Shown here: positions 2,684-18,867 of the stretch, piece by piece
How positions within the stretch are numbered: the first letter of the stretch is position 1
How the letters are laid out: each line of letters starts with the position of its first letter
Origin: a virus
Virus record (IMG/VR): IMGVR_UViG_3300010413_000009
Location: 81,629 to 101,415 of that record
DNA: 19,787 nucleotides
Reading direction: 5' to 3' (one strand)
Program-made: the position numbers and the translations under genes
The notes under the pieces: generated by a model
Told to the model about the DNA's origin: nothing
Databases searched by the model: none
Seen by the model: the letters and a program-made list of their open reading frames with translations, nothing else

Positions 2684-4534
2684 TCAACTGATTGATACCG
2701 TCGGAACTTGCCCTGTTGGGCTGCAGCCTTCCTGCACAATGTGCATCGTATATGTGCCTTGTGGCGGGCAACCAAACACCGCCGTGCGCGGCTCGCTCAT
2801 CCAGGCAATTTCCTCGAGATTTGTTTCAGGATCGCACGATGTGCCGCCAATCTCTAAGTACCAGACATCGCAATCGCACGTCAGATTGACCCAGATAATG
2901 ACACATTCATAGCCGCTGGGGTATTGTTCATCATAGTAGTAGCATGTACCGTCCCCATTCGTCGTCTTCGCCGGGGTGAATGTTGCATTGAAAATATCAC
3001 AATACCCGGTGAGCCCGCTTACAGAGATGGTTTTGGATGATGGGCATTCGCTACATGTCGAGCAGTCCGTGCAGCACGCCAATGATGGCGAACCTGTGGC
3101 CGAGCCGGTCGCCGTGAACGTAGCGGCACTCGGCAATTCGAGCTCGCCGACATCGCCCTCGTAGGCATCAGTAACTGGCGTGCAATTGCTATTGGTTGTG
3201 AAATACCATGTGCCTGTAGTGTCGCCGTTATCGACGTAGCACAAATACCAGCTCCCGCCGTATTGCTGATACTTCGGCATGCCGTTGTAATAGCCGACAA
3301 TGTTGTAGTAGCCAACAACACTCTCCGAGCATCCGCTACAGGTTACTTCATAACCACCGGAATCACACGGGCCGACGCTAGAACTCGACAACGAGCTTAA
3401 TGATTCTGATGAAAGACTACTAAACATCGAGGACGAAGACGACGGAGGGCATTCGCAGTACCAAACAATCTCGCCATAAAAGCGTCCCGTGATGCACGGA
3501 TGCCCGTGATGATCGGTACCGCTATAAAACCTCCACCAACCTTCACCGCCACCGCCGCCGCCTCCATCAGGACATTCGTCAGGATCACCCCAGGTGACCA
3601 GACATTCGCTAGCCATATCGTCTTTACATTGGCACCAGATCCACGCGCTGCAATCACCGGATACCGCGCAAGCGCCACCATCTTGCCCGAGAACATTATC
3701 AGGCGTGGTATCTGCAACGATCGGCAGCTTCCCGATTTGCCAAGCGAGTGTGGGAAAGTCTGGATATGGGCAGCTTTCGAGCGACTCGACAAGACTGCTT
3801 AGGCTACTGCTGAGGCTGCTGAGACTGCTGAGACTGCTGAGACTTGAGGATGGCGTACAGCAATAACCAACCATCAGCGTTTCGCCATAGAACCGCCCAA
3901 CTACTGGCGGCGGGCCAAGCTCATTGCAGCCACCCCGAAACACCCAATGACCGCTGCCAGTAGCTCCCGCTGGACACTCTTCTGTGTTTGGGCAATCAGG
4001 TTTGCATCCGGCGATCGTGTTGTACTCAGGATCCCCGGCGCATGGGCACCATGTCCAAACACCAAGTGCGCCCTCGCCGCATTCTTCCTCCGGAAAGATA
4101 AGCTGTGGTACGTAGGTGCTGCCTTGATAATCGCCAATGGGCGTATTCCAAGGAAACGGCGGCGATGGTATATCCGGACAGACGTATCCGTACTCTGATC
4201 TGTATGACCAATGACTGCCGCCAGAAATGGTCTCGGTAGGGCAGCGACAGATTATCGAGACCTCGCCATAGAACGTGCCGTCATAGCACGGCGGCCCAAG
4301 ACACGGATCACCGCACTTGATGCTCCACGTGCCCTCACCCGCACATGCAGTATCGCATGTGTCGTCCATCGGGCATGAGCTATCAGACCGTATGCACTCA
4401 CTTGTGAGCGGACCGCATGCGCACCAGACCCAGATAGAGCATTCTGAATCTTCGTTGGTCGGATATTCAGTATCCGTAGGCGTGTCGTTGAATGTCGGCC
4501 ACGTAGGTAACCCACACGTCGGATCGATCGGCAT
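2684..4534 (-). CDS. Very cysteine-rich 616-aa protein with a triplicated Cys/Trp module, Ser-Leu tandem repeats and a poly-Gly run. Candidate receptor-binding fibre or adhesin-like protein. No N-terminal signal peptide is evident.
   Basis: ATG at 4532-4534 follows directly after the upstream TAA: TAATGACCGATG. Three paralogous segments are present: (i) SIWVWCACGPLTSEC...TFYGEVSIICRCP, (ii) GVWTWCPCAGDPEY...GRFYGETLMVGYCCTPSSSLSSLSSLSSLSSSLSSL and (iii) SAWIWCQCKDDMASEC...GGGGGGGEGWWRFYSG...GRFYGEIVWYCECPPSSSSSMFSSLSSESLSSLSSSS. The C-terminal region carries additional CxC, CxxC and CDCD motifs. The protein contains dozens of Cys residues. Confidence 0.5.
   Translation of the reverse strand: MPIDPTCGLPTWPTFNDTPTDTEYPTNEDSECSIWVWCACGPLTSECIRSDSSCPMDDTCDTACAGEGTWSIKCGDPCLGPPCYDGTFYGEVSIICRCPTETISGGSHWSYRSEYGYVCPDIPSPPFPWNTPIGDYQGSTYVPQLIFPEEECGEGALGVWTWCPCAGDPEYNTIAGCKPDCPNTEECPAGATGSGHWVFRGGCNELGPPPVVGRFYGETLMVGYCCTPSSSLSSLSSLSSLSSSLSSLVESLESCPYPDFPTLAWQIGKLPIVADTTPDNVLGQDGGACAVSGDCSAWIWCQCKDDMASECLVTWGDPDECPDGGGGGGGEGWWRFYSGTDHHGHPCITGRFYGEIVWYCECPPSSSSSMFSSLSSESLSSLSSSSVGPCDSGGYEVTCSGCSESVVGYYNIVGYYNGMPKYQQYGGSWYLCYVDNGDTTGTWYFTTNSNCTPVTDAYEGDVGELELPSAATFTATGSATGSPSLACCTDCSTCSECPSSKTISVSGLTGYCDIFNATFTPAKTTNGDGTCYYYDEQYPSGYECVIIWVNLTCDCDVWYLEIGGTSCDPETNLEEIAWMSEPRTAVFGCPPQGTYTMHIVQEGCSPTGQVPTVSIS
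3794..3847. repeat. Imperfect tandem repeat of a 9-nt unit (gag[a/g]ctgct), about five to six copies, inside the Cys-rich CDS. It encodes (SSL)n.
   Basis: The sequence ...actgcttaggctactgctgaggctgctgagactgctgagactgctgagact... is read directly. The reverse-strand frame gives SSLSSLSSLSSLSSSLSSL. A nearby GGC/GGT codon run at about 3537-3560 encodes GGGGGGG. Confidence 0.8.
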
Positions 4535-4540
4535 CGGTCA

Positions 4541-4930
4541 TTAGTCCACGGGAACTGGCGGCGCTTTTACCGCTATGAATTTTGTGAGCTGGTCAACGTC
4601 GATGATGCCTATATGATACCGCCAGTTTTCCTTGCCGTCGAACCGCCAGCAGATAAGTAGCTGCGGTATGGAGTTTGACTTGGTGCGCTTCATGCATTCG
4701 GCTGCAACCTGCCTGTACTCGTCGATATCGATGTAGACGTAAACGATGTCGCGCAAGTTGCCGCGTTTCTCGAGCACCGGCAATACCTTATCCCGCACAT
4801 GATGACACGGTCCGCACCAAGTTGCGCCCAGCATCACGAGCAACGGCTCATCTTCCTTCAGGGCCTTCTGATATGCCTCAGTATACGGATTGGGCGCCGC
4901 GGCGAAGAGCAACAGGATTAGCGCGTACAT
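4541..4930 (-). CDS. Thioredoxin-fold thiol-disulfide oxidoreductase with a WCGPC active-site motif and an N-terminal hydrophobic signal peptide or membrane anchor.
   Basis: The translation reads M(SIM)YALILLLFAAAPNPYTEAYQKALKEDEPLLVMLGATWCGPCHHVRDKVLPVLEK... The segment ALKEDEPLLVMLGATWCGPC aligns with the canonical thioredoxin beta-strand plus WCGPC motif. The hydrophobic N-terminus replaces the first Trx strand, as in TlpA/ResA/DsbE-type membrane-anchored proteins. The track start at 4939 is a GTG (cac); the ATG at 4930 is preferred. The gene overlaps the stop of the upstream 339-aa gene (4936-4938) in either case. Confidence 0.65.
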   Translation of the reverse strand: MYALILLLFAAAPNPYTEAYQKALKEDEPLLVMLGATWCGPCHHVRDKVLPVLEKRGNLRDIVYVYIDIDEYRQVAAECMKRTKSNSIPQLLICWRFDGKENWRYHIGIIDVDQLTKFIAVKAPPVPVD

Positions 4931-4935
4931 GATGC

Positions 4936-5955
4936 TCACATCCCAGTGAAAAGGAGCCCAGTCTGAGGCGGCAGTATATGCCGCAGCATCTCCTCCAGAT
5001 TGTTCAACGAATCGTAGTGCCGCACTTTGATGACAATGCAGCTATCGAGATCGAGCTCGTGCGGAGGTTTCGTCAAAGCAGTGCCACCAGCCATGCCCGC
5101 AGGTACTATGACATTACTGCTAGCACCCAGTTCCATATCTGGCTGAAACTCGCTGATCTCAAAGGATTTGATGAGCGGCGTATTCGCAGGCGGCGTAGAG
5201 CCCACAGGCGCGCCCAGGACGTCGTCCTTGTCGATGCGGTAGATATTGCGCGTCGTGGCTAGAAAGCGCCCACGGCGATCTGTGGCGTCCACAAGGACTG
5301 TTTCCTGCCCGTCGGCAAGCGGCACACCCAGGAACGCGGCCACGGCCCGCTGGAGCCCCCCGGTAGTGGTACCTTTGACATGGCAATCGGCGATAGCATT
5401 GATAGTACGCTTGTACCGGAGATACTCCTCATGCCCGCCTTCGGTGGGTCTTGGAAAGTCGTAGATATAGCCGAGGTGCTTCTCGACGTACCCCCGATCG
5501 AATTGTGCGCGAATTCCCCACAGATAAGCCGTGTCATCGCTGTGCGATATCAAGCTGTCAGTGAATGGATCTTTCACGAATTCTATGATGGATTCGTGAA
5601 TTTGGTAGTCTATCCCTTCATGCAATACCCGCGTCGCGTTTGTGACACGATTCAGCAAGAGCGGCACGCTATACAGCCCCGGCGGCTTCGGAAACAGGCT
5701 CTCGTGATTGTCGCGCGGAAGTTCCAACAGAAATCGGCGCTCAGTATGGTACAGTGGTACCGACAGCCGCCCGGCGCATGCCAGCACTTCCTCGAGATTC
5801 TGGCGCTGCTGCGCGCAAAGCTCAAGATTCGCGCGTACGAGGGCTAGCAGCGGGCTATTACCGGCGTAATACTGTGTCCATAGTGAGCCCAAGAGGGCCA
5901 GAGTATCGCGCGCTTGCTTCTGGGAAAGCGTACCCTTTTGTGGTAGTTCAGGCAT
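4936..5955 (-). CDS. Hypothetical 339-aa protein. It is the first gene after the AT-rich gap and may be a fibre-attachment or baseplate-distal component.
   Basis: ATG at 5953-5955. The gene is co-directional and translationally coupled to the downstream thioredoxin gene. It sits immediately after a gp25-like/J-like pair, where gpI-like or fibre genes sit in P2/Mu-type tail modules. No motif was recognised. Confidence 0.4.
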   Translation of the reverse strand: MPELPQKGTLSQKQARDTLALLGSLWTQYYAGNSPLLALVRANLELCAQQRQNLEEVLACAGRLSVPLYHTERRFLLELPRDNHESLFPKPPGLYSVPLLLNRVTNATRVLHEGIDYQIHESIIEFVKDPFTDSLISHSDDTAYLWGIRAQFDRGYVEKHLGYIYDFPRPTEGGHEEYLRYKRTINAIADCHVKGTTTGGLQRAVAAFLGVPLADGQETVLVDATDRRGRFLATTRNIYRIDKDDVLGAPVGSTPPANTPLIKSFEISEFQPDMELGASSNVIVPAGMAGGTALTKPPHELDLDSCIVIKVRHYDSLNNLEEMLRHILPPQTGLLFTGM

Positions 5956-6133
5956 GGCTTACGTCAGTTTGTATTCGCTGCTATGTACGTATATTTTTGC
6001 ATTATTGAGTTACGCACGCTGTAAATCCTTTAGTACTAAAGACTTACAACGCGGCTAATAGATGCTAAATATTCGTGCATATCGCGGACCCCTCTCTTAC
6101 GTCAATTTCAAGAGTTTATTTAAGCGACACTTT
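5956..6133 (-). promoter_or_regulatory. AT-rich 178-bp intergenic spacer between the Baseplate-J-like gene and the accessory cassette. It is a candidate internal promoter or module boundary.
   Basis: It is the only sizeable non-coding gap in the operon and is markedly AT-richer than its surroundings (ttgtattcgctgctatgtacgtatatttttgcattattgag...). On the transcribed strand it contains TTGAAA, TTGACG and TTTACA-N15-TAATGC-like hexamers, but none gives a clean sigma-70 -35/-10 pair. Confidence 0.3.
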
Positions 6134-7594
6134 TCACGACACCGTTACGTCTTCCGGACGAAGGAAAGCCGCAGTGACCCGGTTGAGAATACGGTCGCCA
6201 CTGACCTGGACCTCCAGTATGGAATCGGGGTCTGGCGCGGCGGCTATGACCCGGAAATCGGTTGGTGCCTCGCCAATCGGCAATCCGTTAACGTAGTTGG
6301 CGATGGCCTGCTGAATTGCCGACTTGTCGGCTTTAGCGCCTCTGCGCAACTGCACGTCGACCTTTATCCACGCAGGTTTTGCAGCGAATACAAGGACGTC
6401 GAGGCCAGGCTGCCGGATTTCCGGGCCATCCAGATAGTCCTGAATAGTTGCAACGTGCGGCATCGCCAGCAGTGTCAGATCAAACCGGCGGAAGCTTTCG
6501 CCTTCGGTCAGCCCGAAAGTCTCGCCGAGTTGCTCGATCTGCAAGGTTGCCGTTTGGTAACGGCTGAATCGCGCCTGCTCATACGTTTCTTCGAGCACTT
6601 TGCAATCGCTGATGCGCAAATCGGCATCGACGGCATGTGCGTCTGCAACATGGTAGAAGCCCGGAGCAGCATCACTATCAACGAACACGCGCCAGACGGA
6701 GCGCTTCTCCTCTTTTGTCACCAATCTCCCCAGAGCAATACTGCCGATTTGCGCAGGGTATGGTTGGCTGCGCAGGTAGATATCGATCCTGCCGCCTTTC
6801 GAGATTCCGTCACTTCCCGCATCCCTCGTCATTTCAGGATCGCCGGCGCCAATGACGGCAATATCCATGATGTCGGGCACGCGCTTTCGTACGAGTGCTT
6901 TGATATTTCCGCGCCCTGCGAAACTCGGAGTAGCAATGCTGGTACGCATCTGCCTGATCAATTCCTCGTTCGATTGTGCGGCAACGCCGCCTGTAAAATC
7001 ATGCGTGGCATAGGCCATATCGAAGCCTACCGGACGGATTGCAGGAACAAGAACATCATGGCGCTTGAGGTTGGCGTCGGGATGCATCGAAGCAGCTACC
7101 ACAGGCACTTGTATCGTGAACTTGCCGTCATCGCGCTCCACAGCGGCGACAGAGTGCCGCGTGAGGCCTACCGACCCGGGCGGCTTAACGCTAATTGGTT
7201 CGCTGACATAGAACAGCTGACCACGCGCGCGGAATTTGCTGTTGAGACCAAAATTGAGCCCGCTGCACCGCGTAAGCACAATAGTGATAGTCCCGGTTGC
7301 CTTGGTTGCCATACGCCGAGAGACACCGTAATTGGACGCTAATGCATCGACAGCCGCGTCGTCGGCCAGCGATGGATCTAGCGCGAGCTCCATCGCAGAT
7401 AGCGAGCGCCGCAGCCGCTCGATAGCCGCCATACTCGCGCCCTGCAACATGGCGTGCAGCCCGGTTACTAGATCGCCAACGACACCGCGACGTACATTCA
7501 AGTCCGGGCATTCCTCGGCGACAAATTGTGCGATCAGATCATGCGCGGCGGTTACCTGCGCATCATCTAATTCATCTGGATTCGGCCAATACAT
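6134..7594 (-). CDS. Baseplate J-like (gp6/gpJ-like) baseplate wedge protein.
   Basis: It is a 486-488-aa protein immediately downstream of a gp25/GPW-like gene, matching the canonical W-J order. The track start at 7600 is TTG (caa). The ATG at 7592-7594 (MYWPNPDELDD...) is preceded by AGGAG-N6 (aacctAGGAGttgcagATG), which overlaps the upstream TAG stop. The family call rests mainly on size and synteny; no diagnostic motif is recalled. Confidence 0.5.
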   Translation of the reverse strand: MYWPNPDELDDAQVTAAHDLIAQFVAEECPDLNVRRGVVGDLVTGLHAMLQGASMAAIERLRRSLSAMELALDPSLADDAAVDALASNYGVSRRMATKATGTITIVLTRCSGLNFGLNSKFRARGQLFYVSEPISVKPPGSVGLTRHSVAAVERDDGKFTIQVPVVAASMHPDANLKRHDVLVPAIRPVGFDMAYATHDFTGGVAAQSNEELIRQMRTSIATPSFAGRGNIKALVRKRVPDIMDIAVIGAGDPEMTRDAGSDGISKGGRIDIYLRSQPYPAQIGSIALGRLVTKEEKRSVWRVFVDSDAAPGFYHVADAHAVDADLRISDCKVLEETYEQARFSRYQTATLQIEQLGETFGLTEGESFRRFDLTLLAMPHVATIQDYLDGPEIRQPGLDVLVFAAKPAWIKVDVQLRRGAKADKSAIQQAIANYVNGLPIGEAPTDFRVIAAAPDPDSILEVQVSGDRILNRVTAAFLRPEDVTVS

Positions 7595-7603
7595 CTGCAA
7601 CTC

Positions 7604-8032
7604 CTAGGTTGGTATCGGCAATTTGATTGTCTTTCGTCCGGCTTCCGTGATCAGGACGATCTCCAAGCATACAACATCTGGCTGGATGTCAATGCTGACG
7701 AGATCGAGATCTGTCAGTCGCTGCTCGGGCGGATCATCCGGGACAGCCTCTGCACGAAGCGCGGCGACGATGTAGCTCTTCGATAGCCGAAACTGACCGA
7801 AGACATCCGCCTCAGTGTTGATATCGCCGTGGCGCCATGCCGAGATGAACGGGCACGCACGTTCCACGCTGCGCCCGAACGAATAACGTGCGCTCTGCGG
7901 TTCGGTTAGTAACACGCACATGACCCGCTGGACGAGTTCGTCCATGCCGTTAACCGCATCACAACCGTCATCAAACCATGGCAGGACGAAATCGTTTTCA
8001 TCGACACGCCATGCCGAGATGTCATTATTCAT
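7604..8032 (-). CDS. gp25/GPW-like baseplate wedge protein.
   Basis: The 142-aa protein contains LTEPQSARYSFGRSVERACPFISAWRHGDINTEADVFGQFRLSKSYIVAALRAEAVP followed by a C-terminal beta-strand-like LVSIDIQPDVVCLEIVLITEAGRKTIKLPI. This resembles the T4 gp25 pattern of a ...RxFxPxFG... loop, then an ExxIxxAIxxxEPR-like helix, then hydrophobic C-terminal strands. The size is typical. The ATG overlaps the upstream stop as ATGA. Confidence 0.55.
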   Translation of the reverse strand: MNNDISAWRVDENDFVLPWFDDGCDAVNGMDELVQRVMCVLLTEPQSARYSFGRSVERACPFISAWRHGDINTEADVFGQFRLSKSYIVAALRAEAVPDDPPEQRLTDLDLVSIDIQPDVVCLEIVLITEAGRKTIKLPIPT

Positions 8033-8469
8033 GATGTATCAAGCAGCTCTTGTACGTAGCCTTCGACGGATGCTTTGTGGACGCCGTACGTTACATTACC
8101 ATGCGCTCCGCGGCGTGCCGCAAGCAACATGAGCGCGCGCGTCGGCGTTCTGTGCCGATCCCTGAACGCACGCTCCATCATGCCCATGTAGCAAATCTCG
8201 AGGTTGCGCCCCATTGCTACTTTGCTTTTGTTCTCCCCGGTGCCCGCATATTCCGCACTGTAACCAGAATTGGACGTAGTCCGATTGAACGGATCGCCCA
8301 TATTCGGAATGTCGACGGGGTTGAACGTCCACCCGCCTGTATATCCGGCAGGAATCATCCAGAAGCGCTGCGTGCCCGGCGGCGATTGCTGTAGATAACC
8401 GGAGATCGCCTGTCCGAATGTCGCCATGTCGTCCATTAGCGACGAAAATTGTGGGTTTACACTGGCCAT
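8029..8469 (-). CDS. Hypothetical 146-aa protein, a possible small baseplate or spike component.
   Basis: ATG at 8467-8469 overlaps the TAA of the sigma gene as TAATG. Its stop overlaps the gp25-like start as ATGA. Its position is immediately upstream of the gp25-like gene. Confidence 0.4.
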   Translation of the reverse strand: MASVNPQFSSLMDDMATFGQAISGYLQQSPPGTQRFWMIPAGYTGGWTFNPVDIPNMGDPFNRTTSNSGYSAEYAGTGENKSKVAMGRNLEICYMGMMERAFRDRHRTPTRALMLLAARRGAHGNVTYGVHKASVEGYVQELLDTS

Positions 8470-9209
8470 TAGAGGATCTCCAGGGATTCACGCTGATCGA
8501 TTTTTCGCTGTATTTGTGCCATTCTGTGGCTCACGGCAGCTGGGCTGATTTTCAGCTGTGATGCGACCGCAATCGGTCTCGTTTTCGGATGTCCGTGCAA
8601 TCCGAGCACGCGCTCCATAATGAACTGGTTCGTAGGGTCAAGATCATCATAGACGAATTCCAGCCATGCGTCATGCTCTTCAGTGATGGGGCGCACGCGC
8701 GGATCGTACATACCAGCCCCTTCCTCGCCTGGACGCGTAATTGTGCCTGTGGCAAGCGGACGTCCGCTGCCGCGAATGTATTTCAACCGCTTCATCGACA
8801 GCCCGGTGTAGTCGGCGATTTCGTTATCGGATGGTGGACGTCCAAGCCGTTCCTCCAATTCCCGTGCCGCCGCCTCTGAACGCATCTGGTCGAGCGCAAC
8901 CTGCTCTGGGACGCGAATGATCTGTCGATGTTGTGATGCTAGCCGGCGCAATCGCTGCAATCGCGACATCAGATGTGTTTTAAGTGGGCCTTTGGCCGGG
9001 TCGTAAGAGGCCATTGCGTTTGCGGCCAGCCGCTTTGCCTGCGACTTCATGGTTACGCCGCGGGCTGACGGGCCGGCATAAGTTCGCAGTGCTGTATTCA
9101 GCACCGGATCGATAGCTTTCAGCATACGCCCCATGTTAGTTGGCGAAGGATCGTCTAGCCACGTGCTGTATGGTTTCTGCAGTTCTGGTTCCAGTAGGTT
9201 CTTTGGCAT
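8469..9209 (-). CDS. Sigma-70 family RNA polymerase sigma factor of small (group 3/4-like) size, embedded within the tail gene cluster.
   Basis: The segment KTHLMSRLQRLRRLASQHRQIIRVPEQVA fits the region 2.4/3.0 pattern (RxIRxPxH). The segment LGRPPSDNEIADYTGLSMKRLKYI resembles region 3/4.1. The C-terminal NQFIMERVLGLHGHPKTRPIAVASQLKISPAAVSHRMAQIQRKI is a region 4.2 helix-turn-helix. The start has a GAGGT Shine-Dalgarno 7 nt upstream (TGAGGTAGCCACGATG), which overlaps the upstream gene's TGA stop. Confidence 0.7.
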   Translation of the reverse strand: MPKNLLEPELQKPYSTWLDDPSPTNMGRMLKAIDPVLNTALRTYAGPSARGVTMKSQAKRLAANAMASYDPAKGPLKTHLMSRLQRLRRLASQHRQIIRVPEQVALDQMRSEAAARELEERLGRPPSDNEIADYTGLSMKRLKYIRGSGRPLATGTITRPGEEGAGMYDPRVRPITEEHDAWLEFVYDDLDPTNQFIMERVLGLHGHPKTRPIAVASQLKISPAAVSHRMAQIQRKIDQRESLEIL

Positions 9210-9219
9210 CGTGGCTACC

Positions 9220-10896
9220 TCATGTACAGCTGCCAGTTGTGCTTGGGCACGTTGCAGACGCTGTCAGGTTGTAATCGCCTGCAAACACATTGCTATACAG
9301 TGGATGCGCCGTCACCGTATAGTTATCGCTGTTGTGCTCGGCCTCAGTACGCACATGTGCCATTCGGAAGGCTGTATAGCATCGCTGATGCTGCGCATCG
9401 AAGAAATGGGTAGTGCGCACCACGGTGCCGTAGCGCTTTTCTCCGGCGCCGGGTGGTTGTGACGAACCAGTCGTTCCCTGAAACGAAATAGTCGATCCTG
9501 GCGAGATATCAAAGCGTACGGGCCCAACGATATCACCCCAACGGTTCTTGAGTAGTTCGTTGACGTACATAGCATGGGCCAGTTCGTCGAGCAATATTTC
9601 TGCATCCAGCTTCTGATCGACTGGATCTGGCACGACCGCGTTAGGTGTGCCGGCGCCTGGATGGTTATGCGCATTGCCGCGGACGCTATTGATACCAGTA
9701 GAATCCGCTGTGAACACTGATGGGATCACGAACTCAGAGAGATACTTAGGTGCCCGCTTCAGGATAACGATCCCATCGTTCCTGCCGACGTACATTCCGC
9801 CGATGGTGTCATCATTAACCGCGTCGTCAGGGATAAGGTTGCCGCCAGCACGCGAACCGTGCCCAGCAAAGTAGCCGACAGCGCGGGTAGCCCGGGGCAG
9901 GAACGCATTCATGTCCTGCTGCGACATATCGATCGACTCGATCGTGGCCGCCGCAGCGTATGGATTCCACTCAGCACGCAGCCCGGGAATGAACGGCACG
10001 ATAGCCGCGCGCTCAGGATACGGAATCAGCTTGAAGAAGAACTTCGGCGATAGCTCATTCACGATCTTATCCCAGAACGTGGTATGCGCCATCGCGTGCA
10101 TTGTGTTCGAGATATTGGAAGGTGTGAGCGTCGTCACAGCGATATCATCGGCAATGGCCATTGCTGCGATGTCCGCATCAACCCCGCCTGGGATTTTGAA
10201 TTGTAACGTCTCACTACCAGTATTGATCAGGCTAAGCGCCGCTTTCGCCTCGTGATTCACGCTATCGTTCGTATCGTTGCCGCCTTTCGCCTGGAACTGT
10301 ACGATGTTAATTCGATCTTCACAGGCAAGTTCATTGAACCATGGAAGTAATGCATCGCCCCAGAGATCTACCTGTATGTTCGTGGCCGTTACGACAGACT
10401 GCGCGGCCGTGCGCGCCACGAAATGCGTCAACGCGCCACCAGACGGATCTAAAGCAATCGCGGAATTGAAGATGAAATGCGTCGGATTCTGTGGGTGACT
10501 CGTTGCACTCAGCGTCGAGGCGAAGCTTAATGCACTAAGCCAGTGTGTACCCTCTACAGTCATGGCGTATCCATTATGCACGCGCCGATAACCAACGCCA
10601 GTAACCCATCCACAGAACAGTACGTACGTCCCGGCGGGCCATACGCGGGGCGTACCGGTCGCTGTCGATGTCACCTTGACTACAAGTGGAATTTGCAGGG
10701 GTGTATTGAGCCCGGCAGCAGTATGAGCTGTCGATGCCGTGTACGGAGGTAGCGCAGTGTAGCCGACGGGGAGCACGGCAGTGCAGCTAGGAATTCGATT
10801 CATCTCGTACGAGACTTCGAATTGCACGAGCTCCACTGTGACCGGCGTTGCGCCGATCTCCGCCCAGAGATCGAAATCGATTGCTACATAACTCAT
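9220..10896 (-). CDS. Hypothetical 558-aa structural protein, a candidate baseplate hub or central component.
   Basis: The long ORF is co-directional, and its ATG at 10894-10896 overlaps the upstream stop as ATGA. Its composition is rich in Thr, Ser, Ala, Gly, Asn and Val and is beta-like. It occupies the position between the tape-measure candidate and the gp25/J pair, where hub proteins sit in Mu/P2-like modules. No motif was recognised. Confidence 0.4.
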   Translation of the reverse strand: MSYVAIDFDLWAEIGATPVTVELVQFEVSYEMNRIPSCTAVLPVGYTALPPYTASTAHTAAGLNTPLQIPLVVKVTSTATGTPRVWPAGTYVLFCGWVTGVGYRRVHNGYAMTVEGTHWLSALSFASTLSATSHPQNPTHFIFNSAIALDPSGGALTHFVARTAAQSVVTATNIQVDLWGDALLPWFNELACEDRINIVQFQAKGGNDTNDSVNHEAKAALSLINTGSETLQFKIPGGVDADIAAMAIADDIAVTTLTPSNISNTMHAMAHTTFWDKIVNELSPKFFFKLIPYPERAAIVPFIPGLRAEWNPYAAAATIESIDMSQQDMNAFLPRATRAVGYFAGHGSRAGGNLIPDDAVNDDTIGGMYVGRNDGIVILKRAPKYLSEFVIPSVFTADSTGINSVRGNAHNHPGAGTPNAVVPDPVDQKLDAEILLDELAHAMYVNELLKNRWGDIVGPVRFDISPGSTISFQGTTGSSQPPGAGEKRYGTVVRTTHFFDAQHQRCYTAFRMAHVRTEAEHNSDNYTVTAHPLYSNVFAGDYNLTASATCPSTTGSCT

Positions 10897-11357
10897 TTGC
10901 GTGCGCGCTCCGTGCAGTAAACCATAGCCAGTACCAGCGCGCCAAGCTTGTATGGTAATTGGTCACTGTTCTTCCACAACTCGAACAATATTTCGTTCGT
11001 CTCTTCCGCGGTATCGCCGAACAATTCCCGCTCACTTGCCGGAGTGAGCACAGCTGCGAGTTGCGGAACGAATGCTGCCAGATCATCGCAATCTGATCCA
11101 AAATGAATATTGTCGAATGGCAGATACGTTATGCGCGGGTCTGGTGCCAACACGAGATCTTCAAGTTCGGTGGCGTGCACCAACTGCATAAGCTGCCTGA
11201 TGCGCAACTGATTGGCGGGCGTGCGACCGAATAGCACGACTTTGAGCTTGTCAACTACTTCCGGAACTGGCATCGGAACAAAGTCCGGGTCGACATACTC
11301 GTCGCTGGGATAGCCCGGCGGCATGTTTTGTAGCAGTGTTCTTACGTGGTTGATCAT
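10893..11357 (-). CDS. Hypothetical 154-aa protein.
   Basis: ATG at 11355-11357 overlaps the upstream stop as ATGA. The gene is co-directional and lies in the tail module. Confidence 0.4.
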   Translation of the reverse strand: MINHVRTLLQNMPPGYPSDEYVDPDFVPMPVPEVVDKLKVVLFGRTPANQLRIRQLMQLVHATELEDLVLAPDPRITYLPFDNIHFGSDCDDLAAFVPQLAAVLTPASERELFGDTAEETNEILFELWKNSDQLPYKLGALVLAMVYCTERARK

Positions 11358-11810: not shown

Positions 11811-13817
11811 TTACGCTCCTGCGCCCATAGGCTGCGCTGCAACTCCGTGGACGTCCCCGCCCGCGTTACCCGCGTCCTTCCACATATCTCCCCAGTTCGT
11901 GATCTCGACCGGTGTGACGCCGCTGCCGCCCTGTCCCGGCCGTGTTGGCGCATCGTTTTGAAGCGGGTTCTCCTTGGCGGGCTCATTTCCGGCGCGGTCA
12001 CCCCGCATTGCCTTCCTGTCACGATCGTACCCGCCGAAAAAGCGCGCTAAAAGCTTGCCTGCATCATCTGCTTCACCGACGCCGCGCATGATACGCCCGA
12101 CCGGACCCTCCTGTGCCTCTGCCGCATGCTTTTGGTCTTCTGCCGCAGCGGCCTCCGCCTCCTCCGTGGTCTGCCTAATCGAGCCCAGCATCTCCTTGCT
12201 ATGCAGTGCTGCCGCATGTCCGGCACCCCCGCGGTAACCGCGACTGATTGCGGCTTCGCCGGCGGCACCCATTGCGACCGTGGCTGCAGACTCCGCACGA
12301 CTGCCGCGCAATCCCATCTTATTGAGTCGCTTGATGACAGCTTCGCGCACTTCCTCCTGAGATTGTCCTGCGGTATCGCGGATAACATCGGTGACGCCCT
12401 GCCCGAGCTGCATTGCGCGGCGTGCGCCCATGTGTCCGCGCGTGCCTAGCTGGTTAGCGACTGCCCGGCTCATGAAGTCACCGACATCAGCATCCCACTG
12501 CGTTTCGCGTACCGCACCGGCTACTTCAGCGCCGTACAGCCTGCGGTTTTCATTGCGCTGCTGTAGCATAGTCAAAGCATCAGTCATGTTGACACCGCTG
12601 CCGCGCATCAAATTGCGGAACTGTCCAGGTTCCGTAATGTTGAATTCGCCTTTATCTTTGAGGTTCGTGTACGCCTTGAACGCCTGCGAACCCTTACGCA
12701 ACATTCCAGTCTCGCCCATGCGCATCAGCGCCGACGCCATATTGCCGGATTCACTCTGGCCTGCCTGCACAGTGAGCAGAGCATCCTGCTGCATCAGTTC
12801 AGATGCACTCACGCCTGCCGCCCGGATAAGTCCCTGTCCCTTATCTTTCGCGTAAGCGCCGAATGCCATAGCATGCTGTCCAGCACCGACACCTTGCAGC
12901 ACGTCACCGCCGAGTTCCACCGCACGCATACCCGCCGCCTGCTGAAGACCAAGTGCCTCACCAGCCGAGATATTAGCGCGCTGCGACAGCTGCTTGAACA
13001 TTCGCACTTGATGTTCGAGAACATCATTATCGACGCCGCGGCCAAAGCCGCCCATCGTCATGACGTCTAGTGTCTGTAACATTTGGGTGGGTGGCAATGC
13101 TGCAAATGGACCGCCAAGATCGCGGACGGCGCTCGCGGAATGCGAAATCGAACGGCCGAACTCATGTCGTTGTTCCTTCGACATATTGAGATAATCAGCC
13201 GGCCCGACACCCATATCCTGCGCTGCGCGTACCAGACCAGAAACACGGCCTTTGCGGAAACCACGAGTCTCTTCAGGACGCAATTCGCCCATCTGCGCCG
13301 TAATCTGGCTTGTTGCAGCGCGCAGCTGCTGCTGGTTCATCCCGGTCCCGGGCATATCTGGAATCTGCATGCGATTACGGAGCATTTCCGAGTAATTCGC
13401 TGCGGCCTGGCCACCACCCATACCCAATTCATCGAGGACGTCGCCAGGCATCATCGTGCCGAGAAACGGCATTGCCGCTCCCATCATTCGGCCAAAATCG
13501 GCTGTTTGGGCGAATGCCGATGCTTCCTGGCCAATCTTGGGAGTTAGCAGCCCCATCCCGACGAGACCGCCGCCGGGTTGAGTGCCCATGATGAAATCTT
13601 GGAAGCCCTTGGCCGCCTCAGGCGCACCGATATCCATGATGGACTGCATCTGGCCTGACGAGAACTCACGGGCACGGCGCGTATCCATGATGTTCTGGTT
13701 CGGCTGCCACTGGCCAAAGTCCATGCCTTTCGGCATAATCTGCGGGCCGAGCATCTGGATGACCATATCCAGCAACGGATTGCCAGTATAGCTTGCGTCA
13801 GGACGCCAGGCGGGCAT
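11811..13817 (-). CDS. Low-complexity 668-aa protein rich in Met, Gly, Ala and Gln. It may be a tape-measure or internal virion protein.
   Basis: The composition shows runs such as MGGAMPFLGTMMPGDVLDELGMGGGQ and MQIPDMPGTGMNQQQL. It lies between the tube-side genes and the baseplate genes. ATG at 13815-13817 is preceded by GGGGAAG. No catalytic motif was seen. Confidence 0.4.
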   Translation of the reverse strand: MPAWRPDASYTGNPLLDMVIQMLGPQIMPKGMDFGQWQPNQNIMDTRRAREFSSGQMQSIMDIGAPEAAKGFQDFIMGTQPGGGLVGMGLLTPKIGQEASAFAQTADFGRMMGAAMPFLGTMMPGDVLDELGMGGGQAAANYSEMLRNRMQIPDMPGTGMNQQQLRAATSQITAQMGELRPEETRGFRKGRVSGLVRAAQDMGVGPADYLNMSKEQRHEFGRSISHSASAVRDLGGPFAALPPTQMLQTLDVMTMGGFGRGVDNDVLEHQVRMFKQLSQRANISAGEALGLQQAAGMRAVELGGDVLQGVGAGQHAMAFGAYAKDKGQGLIRAAGVSASELMQQDALLTVQAGQSESGNMASALMRMGETGMLRKGSQAFKAYTNLKDKGEFNITEPGQFRNLMRGSGVNMTDALTMLQQRNENRRLYGAEVAGAVRETQWDADVGDFMSRAVANQLGTRGHMGARRAMQLGQGVTDVIRDTAGQSQEEVREAVIKRLNKMGLRGSRAESAATVAMGAAGEAAISRGYRGGAGHAAALHSKEMLGSIRQTTEEAEAAAAEDQKHAAEAQEGPVGRIMRGVGEADDAGKLLARFFGGYDRDRKAMRGDRAGNEPAKENPLQNDAPTRPGQGGSGVTPVEITNWGDMWKDAGNAGGDVHGVAAQPMGAGA

Positions 13818-14208
13818 AATGACTTCCCCATTTCATGAGTTGTTTACGAATGGCTTCCTTGCCCTTCTTGCTACGCGGATCCGGGAAGCGCTTTAGATAA
13901 CGCCTCCGCATCTCTGCGACTGTTTCCTCGACTGTTTTGGGGCCGGTGTCGAGCCACGGCATGAGTTCATTTATTGCGCTGTTTCTAGCTATCTCCGCTT
14001 GTTTGAAGTGCAAATCGAACGTCGGCCTGGTGGTGTCATAGCTCAGTAGTGCCAGGTTATAATTGAACTTGTATTCATATGCCCGCGCACGTAGTTTCCG
14101 CAGCAGGTAATCTGATACCATTGCTGCCCGTTGCCACCACCTGCCGGATAGTATATCACCTTTGAAGTCCAGCATACCCTCGCAATATGCCTGGACCAGT
14201 AGACACAC
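13798..14208 (-). CDS. Hypothetical small basic protein of 125-136 aa, immediately upstream of the Met/Gly-rich gene and overlapping it by 20 nt.
   Basis: The track start at 14208 is GTG (cac). An in-frame ATG at 14173-14175 gives MLDFKGDIL... The C-terminus (…MKWGSHYARLAS) overlaps the start of the next gene. Confidence 0.35.
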   Translation of the reverse strand: MCLLVQAYCEGMLDFKGDILSGRWWQRAAMVSDYLLRKLRARAYEYKFNYNLALLSYDTTRPTFDLHFKQAEIARNSAINELMPWLDTGPKTVEETVAEMRRRYLKRFPDPRSKKGKEAIRKQLMKWGSHYARLAS

Positions 14209-15413
14209 TAACCGGTTCTGTCGAAAAAACTCGGATCACTTGCGTGTGCCTCGATGTGCTGCAACAGTTTGCAGAATCGGACCCACTGTGCGCCGACGGC
14301 GGAACGCAGGCTATCCGTCGTGAAGATCTCATTGTTGAGATAATCACTTAGGAGCTGTAACGGCTCACCTTCCTTGTCGTCAATATCGGCGATTGCCGGA
14401 AGTTTGATTTCGCCCCTGCCAGCGCGTCGCACCGACTCGATACCCATGGCCATCTTGTAGTTCTCGACCATCGCCACGTATTGCATCACGTGCTTGACCG
14501 TGCCACTGGCGACTGCCTTGTCTGCATGAACAATGGCAAGATCGACTTCCTTTGGCAGCAAGCCACGGAAGACTACGATGATGCGCCCGCCAAACAACTT
14601 GATCTCCTTGCGAAACCGCGCATCGTCGGCCATCAGCGTGGCGACATATGCCACAATGTCTTCATCCGTCGGCACTACGGTTTCACCATTGAGATCGAAG
14701 TTACACCGCGGGCAATATGTCGTTGTGTTGGACAGGTCGGCGCCGCTACCCGTTGGATTTTGATCACCTGAAGAAATTTCGGGTGCAGCGGGAACCACTG
14801 TTTCGGCTGCAACTGCTGCCGGTTTCTTCAGCTTAAACGGCGAAATTGGCCGGTCATCAGTCATGCCGATGTCATCAACCAACTCAATCCCGCCACGCTC
14901 ACGTGTCGCCGCCGCGGTCGCGGCCGCAATGGCCGCAGCGGCACCCGGCTTTGCAAGTACCTGTGGAGGCGGCTGATGTGGCGCCTGTGCGCGGGCCTTA
15001 CGCGCAGCATTCATCCGTGCCTGTAGCTCATCCATCTCACCGAATATGCGCAGCGCTTTCTCCTGCTCGGCAGGCGGAAGGCTTTCGATATCAACGGGTG
15101 TCGGAGGCTCCAGCGGCGGCGTTGCCGGATCGATGGGCGACAGATCCTGGTAGTCTTCTGCGTCCTCGCGGATCTTCTCGACCTCTTTCTGCAACTGCTT
15201 GCCGACGGCTGTGCCGCGGAAGTTAGGCACGGGCTCGCCCGGCCGCCAGCCCGCCTTCTCGATGATTGCGCGCTCGGCATCTGTCAGGTCATCATGTCCG
15301 CGCACAGTCTGTAGCGGTACGCGTCCAAGCACCGTTCCTGGCGGCGGCGGAAGCGTGCCATAGTCAGCTGCTGGCGCTACAGCGAATTGCTTACGGCGTG
15401 GAGGTAATGTCAT
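14208..15413 (-). CDS. Hypothetical 401-aa protein with a Pro/Ala-rich central linker and a C-terminal globular domain.
   Basis: ATG at 15411-15413 overlaps the upstream stop as ATGA. The central region reads PPLEPPTPVDIESLPPAEQE...APHQPPPQVLAKPGAAAAIAAATAAAT and is low-complexity. A C-terminal CPRCNFDLNGE segment is present. Confidence 0.4.
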   Translation of the reverse strand: MTLPPRRKQFAVAPAADYGTLPPPPGTVLGRVPLQTVRGHDDLTDAERAIIEKAGWRPGEPVPNFRGTAVGKQLQKEVEKIREDAEDYQDLSPIDPATPPLEPPTPVDIESLPPAEQEKALRIFGEMDELQARMNAARKARAQAPHQPPPQVLAKPGAAAAIAAATAAATRERGGIELVDDIGMTDDRPISPFKLKKPAAVAAETVVPAAPEISSGDQNPTGSGADLSNTTTYCPRCNFDLNGETVVPTDEDIVAYVATLMADDARFRKEIKLFGGRIIVVFRGLLPKEVDLAIVHADKAVASGTVKHVMQYVAMVENYKMAMGIESVRRAGRGEIKLPAIADIDDKEGEPLQLLSDYLNNEIFTTDSLRSAVGAQWVRFCKLLQHIEAHASDPSFFDRTG

Positions 15414-18265
15414 GGTAGTACTGGTGGACTCCTTAGTTTTCCGATGTGGTAGTAATTGCCATCGATGATGCTCGCTGTAGGCGCATTCAGCGTCACCGGT
15501 GACTCGTAAGTCGCACCGCGGTCCTCAGCAAGGCCCGTGGTTGTATCGTAGAGTTTGTTGGTGGTCTTTTTGTATGCATCGTCGTCCTGGGATAGGCGCT
15601 GATAACCCGGGAACGGTAACGTGTATTGCCAGTCACCCGTAGATCGATTGCTTTCGACCGGATTCTCTGTCCATTCACGAACAGTATCACCGTTCTCGCG
15701 CGCCATCTGCTGCCAGCGTGCTTCCCAAAGCGTGAACGCCTGCGTCATGTAATCTTCTTCGACTCGGAGGTCGAACCATGCACTCCTGACTGTGTAGATA
15801 TTGCCAGGACGTCCGGTTTCGTACCACATGGTATTTAGATCGACACCCCATGCTGTCGTGCTCCATGTACGCAATGTGGCTTCGTATGTATGGCCCTCGC
15901 TGATCGACGTGCATGCCGCTCCTGTGTTGGCCTTCGCTACAACGCCACCCTGTGACGAGTAAAAGTGCCCTGCACATGAAATGACATCGTTGTTTGCCAA
16001 ATGCGAACCATAGTTCAGCAGATCACCATCGATGTACACATCACCACAAAGCGTGGCACCCACTTCGGTGAACAGGTTCACTTGTCGAATACTCGGCGAA
16101 TCCGGAAATGCGTGCATCACGGCGCATTTAACCCAGTGCTTCACGAAATCCGATCGAGTGATGATATCCCCGTAGCCCTTAGTATCCAGAACGATATCGC
16201 CCTCTTTGGGCTGCGTCGGACATACGGATGAATACCCGTCACTCTTACCTAAGCAGTCGGCCATGCGGGTCATCAAATAGACATTACGCGACCAGCCGAC
16301 GATCTCAGAATTCGCTGCCTTCATAACGATGCCGGTATGCGGAGATACTTCTCCCACATACCCCCAGCCGTAATAAGACTGCCCCTGCGTTCCGCACGGA
16401 CCCGAGCCGCCGGCGCCATCTGTATTGGCATCTGAACGGGCTTCGATGAACACACCGTACGGGCCGCCGCCAATACCGCCGCCGAGATTGAGGTTCTCTT
16501 CAGCCTTGATGCGGATATCACATTCACTGGTCGTGATGTCGATGCTGTTCCACGCGCGCAGGCAGATATCGCGACCTCCCCAGGTAATCATGTTTCGTCC
16601 GGGCGCGAGGAACACGTCGCCAGGACATTCCAGGAAGATACATCCGCCGGCCATGCGAATTTCGGAGCCCCAGCCGTCCCCTATACAAATGCCGCCCTCG
16701 TCAGTGATCGTGAAGTACGCCGTATTGCGGTATACATTGACAGCCGGCGCCCGATGATCGTATTCAACAGCATCGTAGCCTGCCACATCTAGATACCATT
16801 GGTATTCGCTTTCTAGGTCGTCCCAGATTGGCACATCCTGATTGCTCGTAACATGCTCGTATTCGCTTTCCTCGTGGAGCTTGTAATCCCATTGGTGATA
16901 GTAGAATGGGTGCTCACCTTCCCAATTGAATAGATGCGCGTGCAAATCCATGATCGTATTGGCGCGATACAGATGCAATTCATCATCTGTGACCCCGGCG
17001 TCAGGCGATGGCGTTGCTTGAATTTTATGATCCGAACCCAGCACGCCATAGTAACCAGATTGTTTGTAATTAGCAGCTGTGTCGCCATCCGCAGATGTGA
17101 CAATCTCGCAGCGCTTGGGTGTTGGGATCACAGGGCGCTTGGCGATGGTTACACCGAGCGCCGAACGCATGCCCAAATGCCCCGACATCATTATCTGCTG
17201 CTCATGCAAACCGATCGGCATGTAGTAGCAGTCGCTGTAACGCATCTCGTCTTGCATCGTGCCGCCGCCGCCCATCGTCAGGATCGGCGAGCAGACCAAT
17301 TTCTTCTCACCCTGCCCGAGATAGCCGCGGTAGAGCCGGAAGCGATGGAATGGCTGCAAGTCGTCGTGCGTGGGCTCGATGCCGGCATAGTGCGGTGCCG
17401 TGTTCTGTACATCATCGGCCGTCAAGACAGAGCTTGCATCGCGCGGGCCCGTGAGCATACCCTGGTGTTCCCACGGATAGGTCGCAACGCCGTGGTAGTA
17501 GACGGTCTCACCTTCATCATCGTAGACTTCGCGCTCACTTGGCCCGGCCCACTCCTGGAATTGCTGTCCAGCAATACGACAGAGCCCGTCCCAGTAGTAC
17601 GCCCAGATGCCTGTGTACTCGTCGGCGCGCAGGAAGGTCATATAGGAGTCGAGATGGAGCATCAAGCCGAGCTCGGACGTACGATTGAACTCACCGATCT
17701 CCAGGCTATCGAACGGAGTGCGCCCGGACCAGTCGGTGATGCCACCGCACATGTCGATGGTGCCGCTCTTTTGCGTGCCGCCCATATTGAGCGGCTCCTG
17801 CAGACCCGATTCGGCTTTCAGGCCGGTGTTCGAGCCCATACTAATGCCGTCGCCATAGGCCTTCGTCGGATTCCACATGTACATAGGCTCGGTACTAATG
17901 ATGAGCCCAGATGTGGTGAAGGGCAGGCGCATAAAGCGAACGTGCGTGCCGACGACGAGCGTATCGGCATCGTAGGCGCCAATGGGCGCAACAGGACCCG
18001 ACATGCCCTTGGCACAATCGACTGCGGGCCCGCCTCCGTCCGGCGCGACGCGGTAGCAGCGCGTCAGAGGAATAGCGTCAATTACAACGCCGTACTCGAA
18101 GAACCCATTAGCGGCTAGGTCTGTCTGTGAAGAAGAAAGCGCGCCGAGACTATCTGCTGCCGGACGCTGATCGCCGCTCAAATTGGGCGCTAAACGCGTA
18201 ACCCAATCGACGTTACGCGCCAACCGCGCGACGTTTTCCGCCGCGTGTAGCATGTAGTTCCACAT
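15410..18265 (-). CDS. Large 951-aa beta-rich virion protein, a candidate tailspike, central fibre or tail-associated enzyme. It may have a beta-helix region.
   Basis: ATG at 18263-18265 (MWNYM...). A Gly/Asp/Asn/Thr-rich segment with periodic hydrophobics and Cys (ICIGDGWGSEIRMAGGCIFLECPGDVFLAPGRNMITWGGRDICLRAWNSIDITTSECDIRIKAEENLNLGGGIGGG) resembles the coils of a right-handed beta-helix. The protein is unusually rich in Trp, Tyr and His. Confidence 0.45.
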   Translation of the reverse strand: MWNYMLHAAENVARLARNVDWVTRLAPNLSGDQRPAADSLGALSSSQTDLAANGFFEYGVVIDAIPLTRCYRVAPDGGGPAVDCAKGMSGPVAPIGAYDADTLVVGTHVRFMRLPFTTSGLIISTEPMYMWNPTKAYGDGISMGSNTGLKAESGLQEPLNMGGTQKSGTIDMCGGITDWSGRTPFDSLEIGEFNRTSELGLMLHLDSYMTFLRADEYTGIWAYYWDGLCRIAGQQFQEWAGPSEREVYDDEGETVYYHGVATYPWEHQGMLTGPRDASSVLTADDVQNTAPHYAGIEPTHDDLQPFHRFRLYRGYLGQGEKKLVCSPILTMGGGGTMQDEMRYSDCYYMPIGLHEQQIMMSGHLGMRSALGVTIAKRPVIPTPKRCEIVTSADGDTAANYKQSGYYGVLGSDHKIQATPSPDAGVTDDELHLYRANTIMDLHAHLFNWEGEHPFYYHQWDYKLHEESEYEHVTSNQDVPIWDDLESEYQWYLDVAGYDAVEYDHRAPAVNVYRNTAYFTITDEGGICIGDGWGSEIRMAGGCIFLECPGDVFLAPGRNMITWGGRDICLRAWNSIDITTSECDIRIKAEENLNLGGGIGGGPYGVFIEARSDANTDGAGGSGPCGTQGQSYYGWGYVGEVSPHTGIVMKAANSEIVGWSRNVYLMTRMADCLGKSDGYSSVCPTQPKEGDIVLDTKGYGDIITRSDFVKHWVKCAVMHAFPDSPSIRQVNLFTEVGATLCGDVYIDGDLLNYGSHLANNDVISCAGHFYSSQGGVVAKANTGAACTSISEGHTYEATLRTWSTTAWGVDLNTMWYETGRPGNIYTVRSAWFDLRVEEDYMTQAFTLWEARWQQMARENGDTVREWTENPVESNRSTGDWQYTLPFPGYQRLSQDDDAYKKTTNKLYDTTTGLAEDRGATYESPVTLNAPTASIIDGNYYHIGKLRSPPVLP

Positions 18266-18326
18266 ATTGCACCGGTTAGGGGCTCAAAAGGCCCTAGGGA
18301 CTACGTCCCTAATACCACGCTACCTA
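18266..18326 (-). promoter_or_regulatory. Intergenic element between the tube-like gene and the 951-aa gene. It holds a short hairpin (AGGGAC-GTA-GTCCCT), a CCCTAGGG palindrome, a U-run and the TAGGGACGT motif.
   Basis: The transcribed strand reads TAGgtaggtagcgtggtatTAGGGACGTAGTCCCTAGGGCCTTTTGAGCCCCTAACCGGTGCAATATG. It has a 6-bp stem with a 3-nt loop. TAGGGACGT begins 38 nt upstream of the ATG. Confidence 0.3.
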
Positions 18327-18788: not shown

Positions 18789-18867
18789 TGGCTAACAACC
18801 TCCTTGCATGTCCAGGGCTTGCCACGTCCCTAGTGGTTAAGTTTAGACCGACCGGGTCGGTTGGCAC
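18789..18867 (-). promoter_or_regulatory. Intergenic element upstream of the tube-like gene. It holds a GC hairpin (ACCGAC-CCG-GTCGGT), the TAGGGACGT motif and an AGGAGG Shine-Dalgarno.
   Basis: The transcribed strand reads TAGGTGCCAACCGACCCGGTCGGTCTAAACTTAACCACTAGGGACGTGGCAAGCCCTGGACATGCAAGGAGGTTGTTAGCCAATG. TAGGGACGT begins 36 nt upstream of the ATG, the same motif and nearly the same spacing as at 18266..18326. Confidence 0.3.

Follow-up and report, generated by a model that had tools for sequence, protein, structure and literature searches.

In a comparison of 224 jumbo phages, one group encodes a multisubunit RNA polymerase (RNAP) without a sigma factor, and another encodes sigma factors without a polymerase (PMC7824862). 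A 2026 review describes the phage multisubunit polymerases as lacking homologues of bacterial alpha, sigma, and omega (PMC13282480). The specificity subunits gp68 of phiKZ and gp226 of AR9 have no sequence similarity to sigma, and the resemblance of gp68 is structural only (PMC13282480). Precedents for virion-delivered or tail-borne transcription machinery are the virion polymerases of N4 and phiKZ and the polymerase of Thermus phage P23-45, which is fused to the tape-measure protein. Here we describe a sigma-70-family gene in a 19,787-nucleotide (nt) stretch of a viral record in IMG/VR (IMGVR_UViG_3300010413_000009, positions 81,629 to 101,415); this whole stretch is hereafter called the window. 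The gene encodes a protein of 246 amino acids (aa) and lies among tail and baseplate genes. Comparison with related phages shows that this sigma-70-family gene is a fixed part of the baseplate cluster in phages that encode a polymerase, and its product is probably virion-associated.

The sigma-70-family gene and its position in the baseplate cluster

The window carries a long run of minus-strand genes with the sigma gene among them, and all window coordinates given below refer to the minus strand. The sigma gene is an ATG-started open reading frame (ORF) at 8469..9209. The annotation of the Joint Genome Institute gives a shorter product of 218 aa, begun at an internal start. The full-length start of the 246-aa product is favoured because two residues near the N-terminus, E7 and W17, are kept throughout the family alignment.

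The protein is a divergent but complete member of the sigma-70 family, with sigma2, sigma3, a flexible linker, and sigma4. As a single sequence, it shows marginal similarity to solved sigma factors (E about 0.005–0.1), and its sigma matches in NCBIfam are far below threshold. The Pfam model Sigma70_r3 (PF04539) matches at 27.7 bits, against a curated cut-off of 25.3. A public protein search returned 74 relatives, nearly all of about 245 aa and of metagenomic origin. Among the aligned relatives, Sigma70_r3 was found in 34 of 34, Sigma70_r4 in six, and Sigma70_r4_2 in two. The family profile is collinear with solved sigma factors from region 2.2 through region 4.2, and its top matches are Mycobacterium tuberculosis SigB (E=3.5e-8) and RpoS (E=1.5e-7). 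An AlphaFold model built from the alignment has a mean predicted local distance difference test score (pLDDT) of 79, with three helical domains and disorder at aa 151-178.

Each of the three domains of the sigma-70 family was located in the protein. The predicted sigma2 domain covers aa 8-96 (8922..9188) and includes YDPxxG-LKTHL-LQRLRR, the equivalent of regions 2.2-2.4. The Sigma3 domain covers aa 102-147 (8769..8906), with the PF04539 match at aa 113-145, and in the PDB alignments its sequence IIRVPEQV...LGRPPSD..IADYTGLS aligns with SigA region 3. The disordered linker at aa 151-178 (8676..8759) takes the position of sigma region 3.2; its pLDDT is below 50 and it is variable in the family alignment. 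The sigma4 helix-turn-helix domain occupies aa 180-245 (8475..8672) and carries the conserved motif KISPAAVSHR. An earlier, sequence-only reading of the window had proposed a sigma-70-family factor with regions 2.4, 3, and 4.2 and had named a Sigma70 domain scan as the check and a missing region 4 as the point on which the proposal could fail. The domain matches, the SigB and RpoS profile hits, and the three-domain model bear out this assignment, and region 4 is present on alignment.

The most conserved stretch of the whole family is the sigma4 recognition helix, SPAAVSHR. In the HMMER alignment, near-invariant family residues fall on DNA-contact positions of Escherichia coli sigma70, namely Q85 on Q437, R89 on R441, and R99-x-P101 on R451-x-P453; the T440 equivalent is R88. 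Because the near-invariant residues coincide with sigma70 DNA-contact positions, the protein is argued to be a working DNA-binding factor.

A scan of IMG/VR retrieved 45 viral contigs of 39-226 kb with members of this sigma family. Without redundancy there are about 44 loci, the most distant with a sigma 28% identical, and a second scan with a broader alignment recovered the same 44 contigs again. The family is large, environmental, and widespread in metagenomes: an exhaustive profile search counted 723 clusters (50% identity) that reach E≤1e-30, and 1497 that reach E≤1e-10. Contigs with relatives at 75%, 51%, 41%, and 40% sigma identity show the same gene order and the same tight packing. The order that is kept consists of a protein of about 550 aa, sigma, two small proteins, and a Baseplate-J homologue, usually with overlapping stops and starts. 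In tblastn searches with the window proteins, 48 of 51 loci have the Baseplate-J homologue about 1.6 kb downstream of sigma, and 41 of 51 have the homologue of the 558-aa protein about 1.7 kb upstream. In loci too diverged for clear sequence similarity, ORFs of corresponding length hold the same positions.

The junctions of the sigma gene are also tight. Upstream, the window reads TGA-GGTAGCCACG-ATG (9210..9222), in which the stop of the 558-aa gene is at 9220-9222, a GAGG overlaps the TGA, and 10 nt lead to the sigma ATG. Downstream, the sigma TAA overlaps the ATG of a 146-aa gene in TAATG (8467..8471). The ORF and both junctions, including the Shine-Dalgarno arrangement upstream, can be read in the sequence as the sequence-only reading had described them. 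Across the loci, the distance from the upstream stop to the sigma start is mostly below 35 nt. The sigma stop and the next start share one base (TAATG or TGATG) in 19 of the 44 non-redundant loci, and the two overlap by 1-8 bases in 26 of 44. At the level of sequence, the sigma gene is thus predicted to be co-expressed and translationally coupled with the late structural genes.

The same reading had called the placement inside a tail and baseplate operon uncommon and had allowed that the gene could be a moron, that is, a recent horizontal insertion of a host sigma gene. The first point holds, in that weaker sigma matches in phages Munch and S-H34 sit among small early-type genes. Those two were set aside as ordinary early-region sigmas outside the family of the window protein, and a match in Acinetobacter phage ME3 was spurious, lying inside the terminase gene. 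Morons are common among regulatory genes inside structural operons. However, sigma is at the same place in all relatives examined, and its position is conserved across about 44 loci and in the cultured phages Arash and D69 described below, which argues that it is not a moron. The G+C content of the gene (0.56) does not deviate from the window mean (0.557), no flanking promoter or terminator was found around it, and no close cellular homologue surfaced, the best matches all being metagenomic proteins of about 245 aa. Synteny contradicts the insertion, to which we give practically no weight. Inherited vertically, the sigma gene belongs to the core of the baseplate cluster in a large, mostly uncultured clade of phages with contractile tails, of about 90-230 kb.

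Phage-encoded RNA polymerase and the virion proteome of phage Arash

A tblastn search against cultured phages gave no match for the sigma, the 558-aa protein, or the 951-aa protein of the window. Distant family members used as queries matched gp10 of Salmonella phage Arash and a hypothetical protein of Vibrio phages D69, D148, and D181. With the A1 family profile, Arash gp10 reaches 74.6 bits and D69 g11 reaches 62.7 bits, and the window protein itself matches Arash gp10 with E=1.6e-12 in a small database. Arash Gp10 (OQ632216, annotated as 'RNA polymerase sigma factor RpoS') and D69 g11 belong to the same sigma family and have the same downstream layout as the window: a small protein, a gp25-like protein (gp12/g13), a J-like protein (gp13/g14), and a homologue of the 339-aa protein (gp14/g15). 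Upstream they differ, with a 1165-aa lysozyme-containing protein and a 96-aa protein in Arash and D69, whereas the window has the 558-aa protein.

The Arash and D69 genomes also encode a multisubunit polymerase of the type found in relatives of the window. In Arash Gp206, a beta subunit and the N-terminal half of beta' form one polypeptide (Pfam Rpb2 domains 3 and 6; Rpb1 domains 1 and 2), and Gp216 carries Rpb1 domain 5. The polymerase of D69 is the same enzyme, with 58% identity to that of Arash. A first scan of IMG/VR with an alignment of the catalytic segment placed two sigma-bearing contigs among the best 80 matches. A second scan, centred on those two sequences, placed at least 14 of the 44 sigma-bearing contigs among its best 80 matches, a count in which the absence of a contig from the matches listed carries no meaning. 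These contigs, at least 14, include those with sigmas 65% and 72% identical to that of the window. For example, the 226-kb contig IMGVR_UViG_3300017991_000049, with a sigma 72% identical, encodes a 1456-aa beta-beta'N fusion and a 629-aa beta'C protein (L149:2176-6546 and 7581-9470) in the architecture of Arash. Close relatives of the window phage therefore encode their own RNA polymerase, composed of a beta-beta'N fusion of about 1450 aa and a beta'C protein of about 630 aa. Since each contig appears once among the matches listed, a single polymerase set per genome is suggested. The fusion aligns with Salmonella RpoC residues 22-514, which include the clamp-helix region, and with RpoB through the flap region, so both sigma docking elements are present at the alignment level. 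We infer a polymerase in the window phage from the relatives with 65-72% sigma identity. The catalytic motif of the enzyme reads AADYDGD in Arash and NADFDGD or GADFDGD in the metagenomic relatives.

The virions of Arash have been analysed by liquid chromatography-tandem mass spectrometry (MS) after purification on sucrose gradients (PMC10585845). Gp10 was detected with 100% coverage, 24 unique peptides, and 467 spectra (PMC10585845). The most detected protein was Gp206, annotated as RNA polymerase beta, with 3516 spectra, and Gp216 gave 1210 spectra (PMC10585845). The paper lists Gp10 in the virion proteome without discussing its gene position, its conservation, or a link to the polymerase (PMC10585845). 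We divided these spectra by protein length, which is a crude measure of abundance. The resulting values are 2.0 spectra per residue for the sigma Gp10, 2.3 for the polymerase subunit Gp206, and 2.0 for Gp216, compared with 0.98 for the baseplate protein Gp13 and 0.59 for a deoxynucleoside monophosphate kinase regarded as a contaminant. These values are compatible with a sigma that is present in step with the polymerase in Arash virions. The helicase Gp217, whose gene adjoins the polymerase in Arash, is as abundant as the polymerase in the virion proteome (2.4 spectra per residue).

Proposed role, promoter search, and competing explanations

We tentatively propose that the sigma is a late-made, virion-carried specificity subunit of the phage polymerase, a reading to which we give a little less than an even chance. 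The sigma would be made late, together with the tail and baseplate proteins, and its gene's place in the baseplate operon would limit its synthesis to the time of virion building. Sigma and phage polymerase would be packed together into the virion. After entry into the next host, sigma would serve as the promoter-specificity (initiation) subunit of the incoming polymerase, and early phage genes would be read without host sigma. This reading is favoured because of the sigma identity of the protein, its conserved residues, its fixed position, the co-resident polymerase, and the detection of its homologue in Arash virions, and also because virion delivery has precedents and host-type promoters are not in excess (13 sigma70-type promoters were found in the window, with 13.9 expected). 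The more specific proposal that the sigma is loaded into the virion, possibly by way of the tail and baseplate assembly line, and is injected as the initiation subunit of the phage polymerase is a distinct possibility that we hold slightly more loosely. The model is directly testable because cultured members of the clade exist, namely Salmonella phage Arash and Vibrio phages D69, D148, and D181.

Several observations weigh against a virion-carried subunit of the phage polymerase. No polymerase gene is visible on the window's own contig, of which 19.8-36 kb is covered. No cognate promoter motif was found. Identity between the Arash sigma and the window protein is only about 24%. The Arash virion preparation contained 116 proteins, ribonucleotide reductases included, and its authors allow for carry-over of abundant enzymes (PMC10585845). 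The characterised phage multisubunit polymerases, those of phiKZ and AR9, do not use sigma-70-family factors. The evidence would fit binding of the sigma to the phage polymerase and to the host polymerase equally. Residues of promoter melting are altered as well, with H79 in place of Y430 and S82/R83 in place of W433/W434 in the HMMER alignment. The tryptophan dyad is also absent from some bona fide alternative sigmas. With three domains kept and Y430, W433, and W434 replaced, the protein has the architecture of a full sigma but an altered melting region.

The sequence-only reading had suggested that the sigma could drive the accessory cassette downstream of the AT-rich gap, or the tube and 951-aa genes with their shared TAGGGACGT motif. 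The window has two exact copies of TAGGGACGT and no more (minus strand, 18303-18311 and 18824-18832); in both cases a start codon follows after about 37-45 nt. The first copy lies in the spacer between the tube and 951-aa genes (18266-18326), where two tandem stem-loops were found (18279..18311), and it forms the 5' arm of the first, a perfect hairpin of 7 base pairs. Both stem-loops are kept in five related phages with differing stem sequences; the consensus structure has 10 pairs, all of them intact, and compensatory changes affect 3 of the 6 that make up the first stem. By folding energy alone, the spacer is no better than shuffled sequence. The second exact copy lies in the sheath-to-tube spacer (18824..18832), and its sequence is not conserved in the relatives L002, L009, and L013. 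In L002, which is 75% identical, the TAGGGACGT positions read CCGGGGACATGG and TTAGGGGCGGTA. A promoter of this sigma should be conserved because the DNA-binding helices of the sigma are almost invariant across the family, and TAGGGACGT is not. As a hairpin arm in one of its two copies and a varying sequence among relatives, TAGGGACGT was rejected as a conserved promoter element. A search for repeated 11-mers in 45 kb of a relative returned only coding repeats or locus overlaps.

The tandem stem-loops probably set how strongly the tube gene is expressed relative to the genes after it, either by partial termination or by stabilising the messenger RNA. GC-rich tandem stem-loops also occur just after the tube gene at L002:772-842, L009:883-947, L010:365-440, and L013:2362-2426. 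More distant relatives have a strong hairpin after the tube gene too, in some cases followed by a T-run. The sheath-to-tube spacer (18789-18867, minus strand) has a short hairpin of its own directly after the sheath stop, with the covarying stems CCGAC/GTCGG, GCCG/CGGC, and CCAAC/GTTGG; the corresponding spacers in relatives are L002:230-306, L009:345-417, and L013:1824-1902. A second element of this spacer, with a conserved, loop-like GTGGCAA, precedes the tube start by about 25-30 nt.

An AT-rich gap of 178 nt separates the Baseplate-J gene and the 339-aa gene (5956-6133, minus strand), with a G+C content of 0.39 compared with 0.56. It holds two exact copies of TGACGTAAG, at 5958-5966 and 6096-6104, where 0.14 would be expected by chance. 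Two relatives, L002 and L014, carry TGACATAAG twice at the same spacing of 139-141 nt, the second copy abutting the start codon. The relative L009 has no gap at this site. The gap could serve the distal sub-operon as a promoter or operator, or it could be what a small insertion with target duplication left behind.

The rival explanations concern where the sigma acts and on which enzyme. The sigma might stay in the cell as a late factor, without a virion role, and direct the host or the phage polymerase to late or very late promoters, with positive feedback on the structural operons or on the downstream sub-operon of tail-fibre and accessory genes. A complete sigma architecture with conserved DNA-contact residues fits such a factor, as do a gene in the late operon and the AT-rich gap with its repeated TGACGTAAG, present before the distal sub-operon in the window and two relatives. 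The MS signal in Arash may be carry-over, given the 116 proteins detected. However, a sigma made from the operon that it activates cannot start that operon, and no conserved promoter-like motif was found upstream of the structural genes, TAGGGACGT being unconserved. In the Arash preparation, Gp10 has 24 unique peptides, compared with 2 for the ribonucleotide reductases and two helicases (PMC10585845), and its spectra per residue match those of the polymerase subunits. We consider a purely intracellular late sigma rather unlikely. The sequence-only reading had considered such a late factor on the host polymerase; the RNA polymerase of the lineage and the virion sigma of Arash shift the likely role towards a factor of the phage polymerase, possibly delivered with the virion.

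Overlapping with the late-factor explanation, the sigma might displace host sigma on the host core enzyme while the phage polymerase uses other factors. The closest solved relatives of the protein are bacterial group 2/3 sigmas, and according to the reviews the host polymerase is the target of phage sigmas, and sigma homologues are missing from phage multisubunit polymerases (PMC7824862, PMC13282480). The sigma-encoding phages of those same reviews lack a polymerase, however, whereas here both genes are on the same contigs, and the phage enzyme retains alignable clamp-helix and flap regions; a dedicated host-polymerase factor seems improbable. The fixed place among baseplate genes across a deep clade and the coupled translation would also suit a sigma fold turned into a building block of the baseplate or tail lumen with no part in transcription, and the Arash homologue is present in virions at levels like those of its neighbours. 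Against such exaptation, the strongest conservation is at the sigma DNA-contact positions and in the sigma4 recognition helix rather than on a new surface, and the three domains and the flexible linker are all retained; we consider it very unlikely.

Neighbouring tail genes and comparison with described systems

The gene block around sigma is a contractile-tail module. The 36-kb contig begins at the sheath gene, and the 495-aa protein encoded upstream of the tube gene (locus L053) has a weak Phage_sheath_1 match of 25.9 bits, below threshold. It is followed by a tube-sized protein of 153 aa (18327-18788), by proteins with no assigned function of 951 aa (15410-18265), 401 aa (14208-15413), and about 130 aa (13798-14208), and by a Gly/Ala/Met-rich, tape-measure-like protein of 668 aa (11811-13817). 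In every close relative, a conserved protein of 951 aa is encoded between tube and tape measure, and it has no family or cultured-phage match. The second most detected virion protein of Arash, Gp4 (1097 aa), is encoded early in the same gene block; no homology was detected between it and the 951-aa protein of the window. Two genes for proteins of about 150 aa each, one of them at 10893-11357, precede the 558-aa gene.

The sequence-only reading had placed sigma between a tail hub and baseplate genes. The baseplate side of this description is secured by the Baseplate J-like wedge protein of 488 aa (6134..7600), which matches Pfam Baseplate_J at 34.4 bits and PHROG 6 with E=8.6e-22. The 142-aa protein (7604..8032) is probably a gp25-like baseplate wedge protein, but its match is weak (profile match to 9euf_L, E=0.056); its profile also matches Arash gp12 and D69 g13. 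The hub side is not established. The 558-aa protein (9220..10896), the conserved upstream partner of sigma, is a putative tail hub with weak matches at its N-terminus only, to Pvc8 (E=0.69) and the lambda tail tube protein (E=0.27) in profile searches against PDB, and with no PHROG match in the profile search. The hub label is plausible but unproven. The 146-aa protein directly downstream of sigma (8029..8469) has no family or PDB match, and its AlphaFold2 model has a pLDDT of 53. Proteins of 124 aa at the same position in distant relatives have no detectable homology to it. With its gene overlapping that of sigma, the 146-aa protein was considered as a candidate anti-sigma factor, and neither the family and PDB searches nor the model gave a match or fold that would point to one.

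Downstream of the Baseplate-J gene lies the gene for the 339-aa protein (4936-5955), with no assigned function. It is followed by a thioredoxin-like gene (4541-4939, minus strand) with a WCGPC motif (Pfam Thioredoxin, 33.9 bits), directly before the gene for a 616-aa cysteine-rich protein with internal repeats and SSLSS runs (2684-4534, minus strand), probably a tail fibre or receptor-binding protein. The sequence suggests that the thioredoxin-like protein may be a dedicated disulfide helper for the fibre; its gene is absent from the relative L002. Just past the left end of the window (L001:17856-19541), downstream of the tail-fibre genes, is a gene for a 561-aa protein with a glycosyltransferase family 9 (heptosyltransferase) domain, which is also present in L002. 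No Rfam families and no transfer RNA genes were found in the window.

The clade thus has both its own multisubunit polymerase and a sigma factor, against the two-group division of earlier comparisons (PMC7824862, PMC13282480). If the proposed role is true, it would give the first example of a viral multisubunit polymerase that depends on sigma, as well as the first of a sigma delivered by the virion, and it would contradict the generalisation that polymerase-encoding phages lack sigma homologues. A sigma that serves the phage polymerase would make a simple system of two polypeptides plus sigma, with a bearing on the evolution of sigma-polymerase pairing, and would widen the ways in which viruses are known to deliver promoter specificity with the particle.

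Bacterial group 2/3 sigmas such as SigB, RpoS, FliA, and SigF resemble the window protein in having sigma2, sigma3, a linker, and sigma4, no region 1.1, and a length of about 245 aa. They share with it the equivalents of Q437, R441, and R451-x-P453 and the sigma4 helix-turn-helix. Unlike them, the window protein is without W433/W434 and Y430, and its gene lies in a phage baseplate operon of a clade with its own polymerase. Phage sigma-family proteins that reprogram promoter choice are also known from T4 (gp55), SPO1 (gp28 and gp34), and jumbo phages without RNAP. Their target is the host polymerase and their genes lie in early or middle regions, whereas the window sigma is in the baseplate cluster of a polymerase-encoding clade.

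The virion RNAP of N4, the virion RNAPs of phiKZ and AR9, and the RNAP of P23-45 offer a parallel, since they are made late, travel with the particle, and carry out the first transcription once the next host is infected. The P23-45 machinery is physically part of the tail. These phages deliver the catalytic enzyme, and none of them is known to have a sigma-70-family subunit; for the window protein, delivery is inferred. The fifth subunits of the non-virion RNAPs of phiKZ (gp68) and AR9 (gp226) would be its functional analogues, as phage specificity subunits for a phage multisubunit polymerase. Unlike gp68 and gp226, the window protein is recognisably a sigma-70-family member by sequence.

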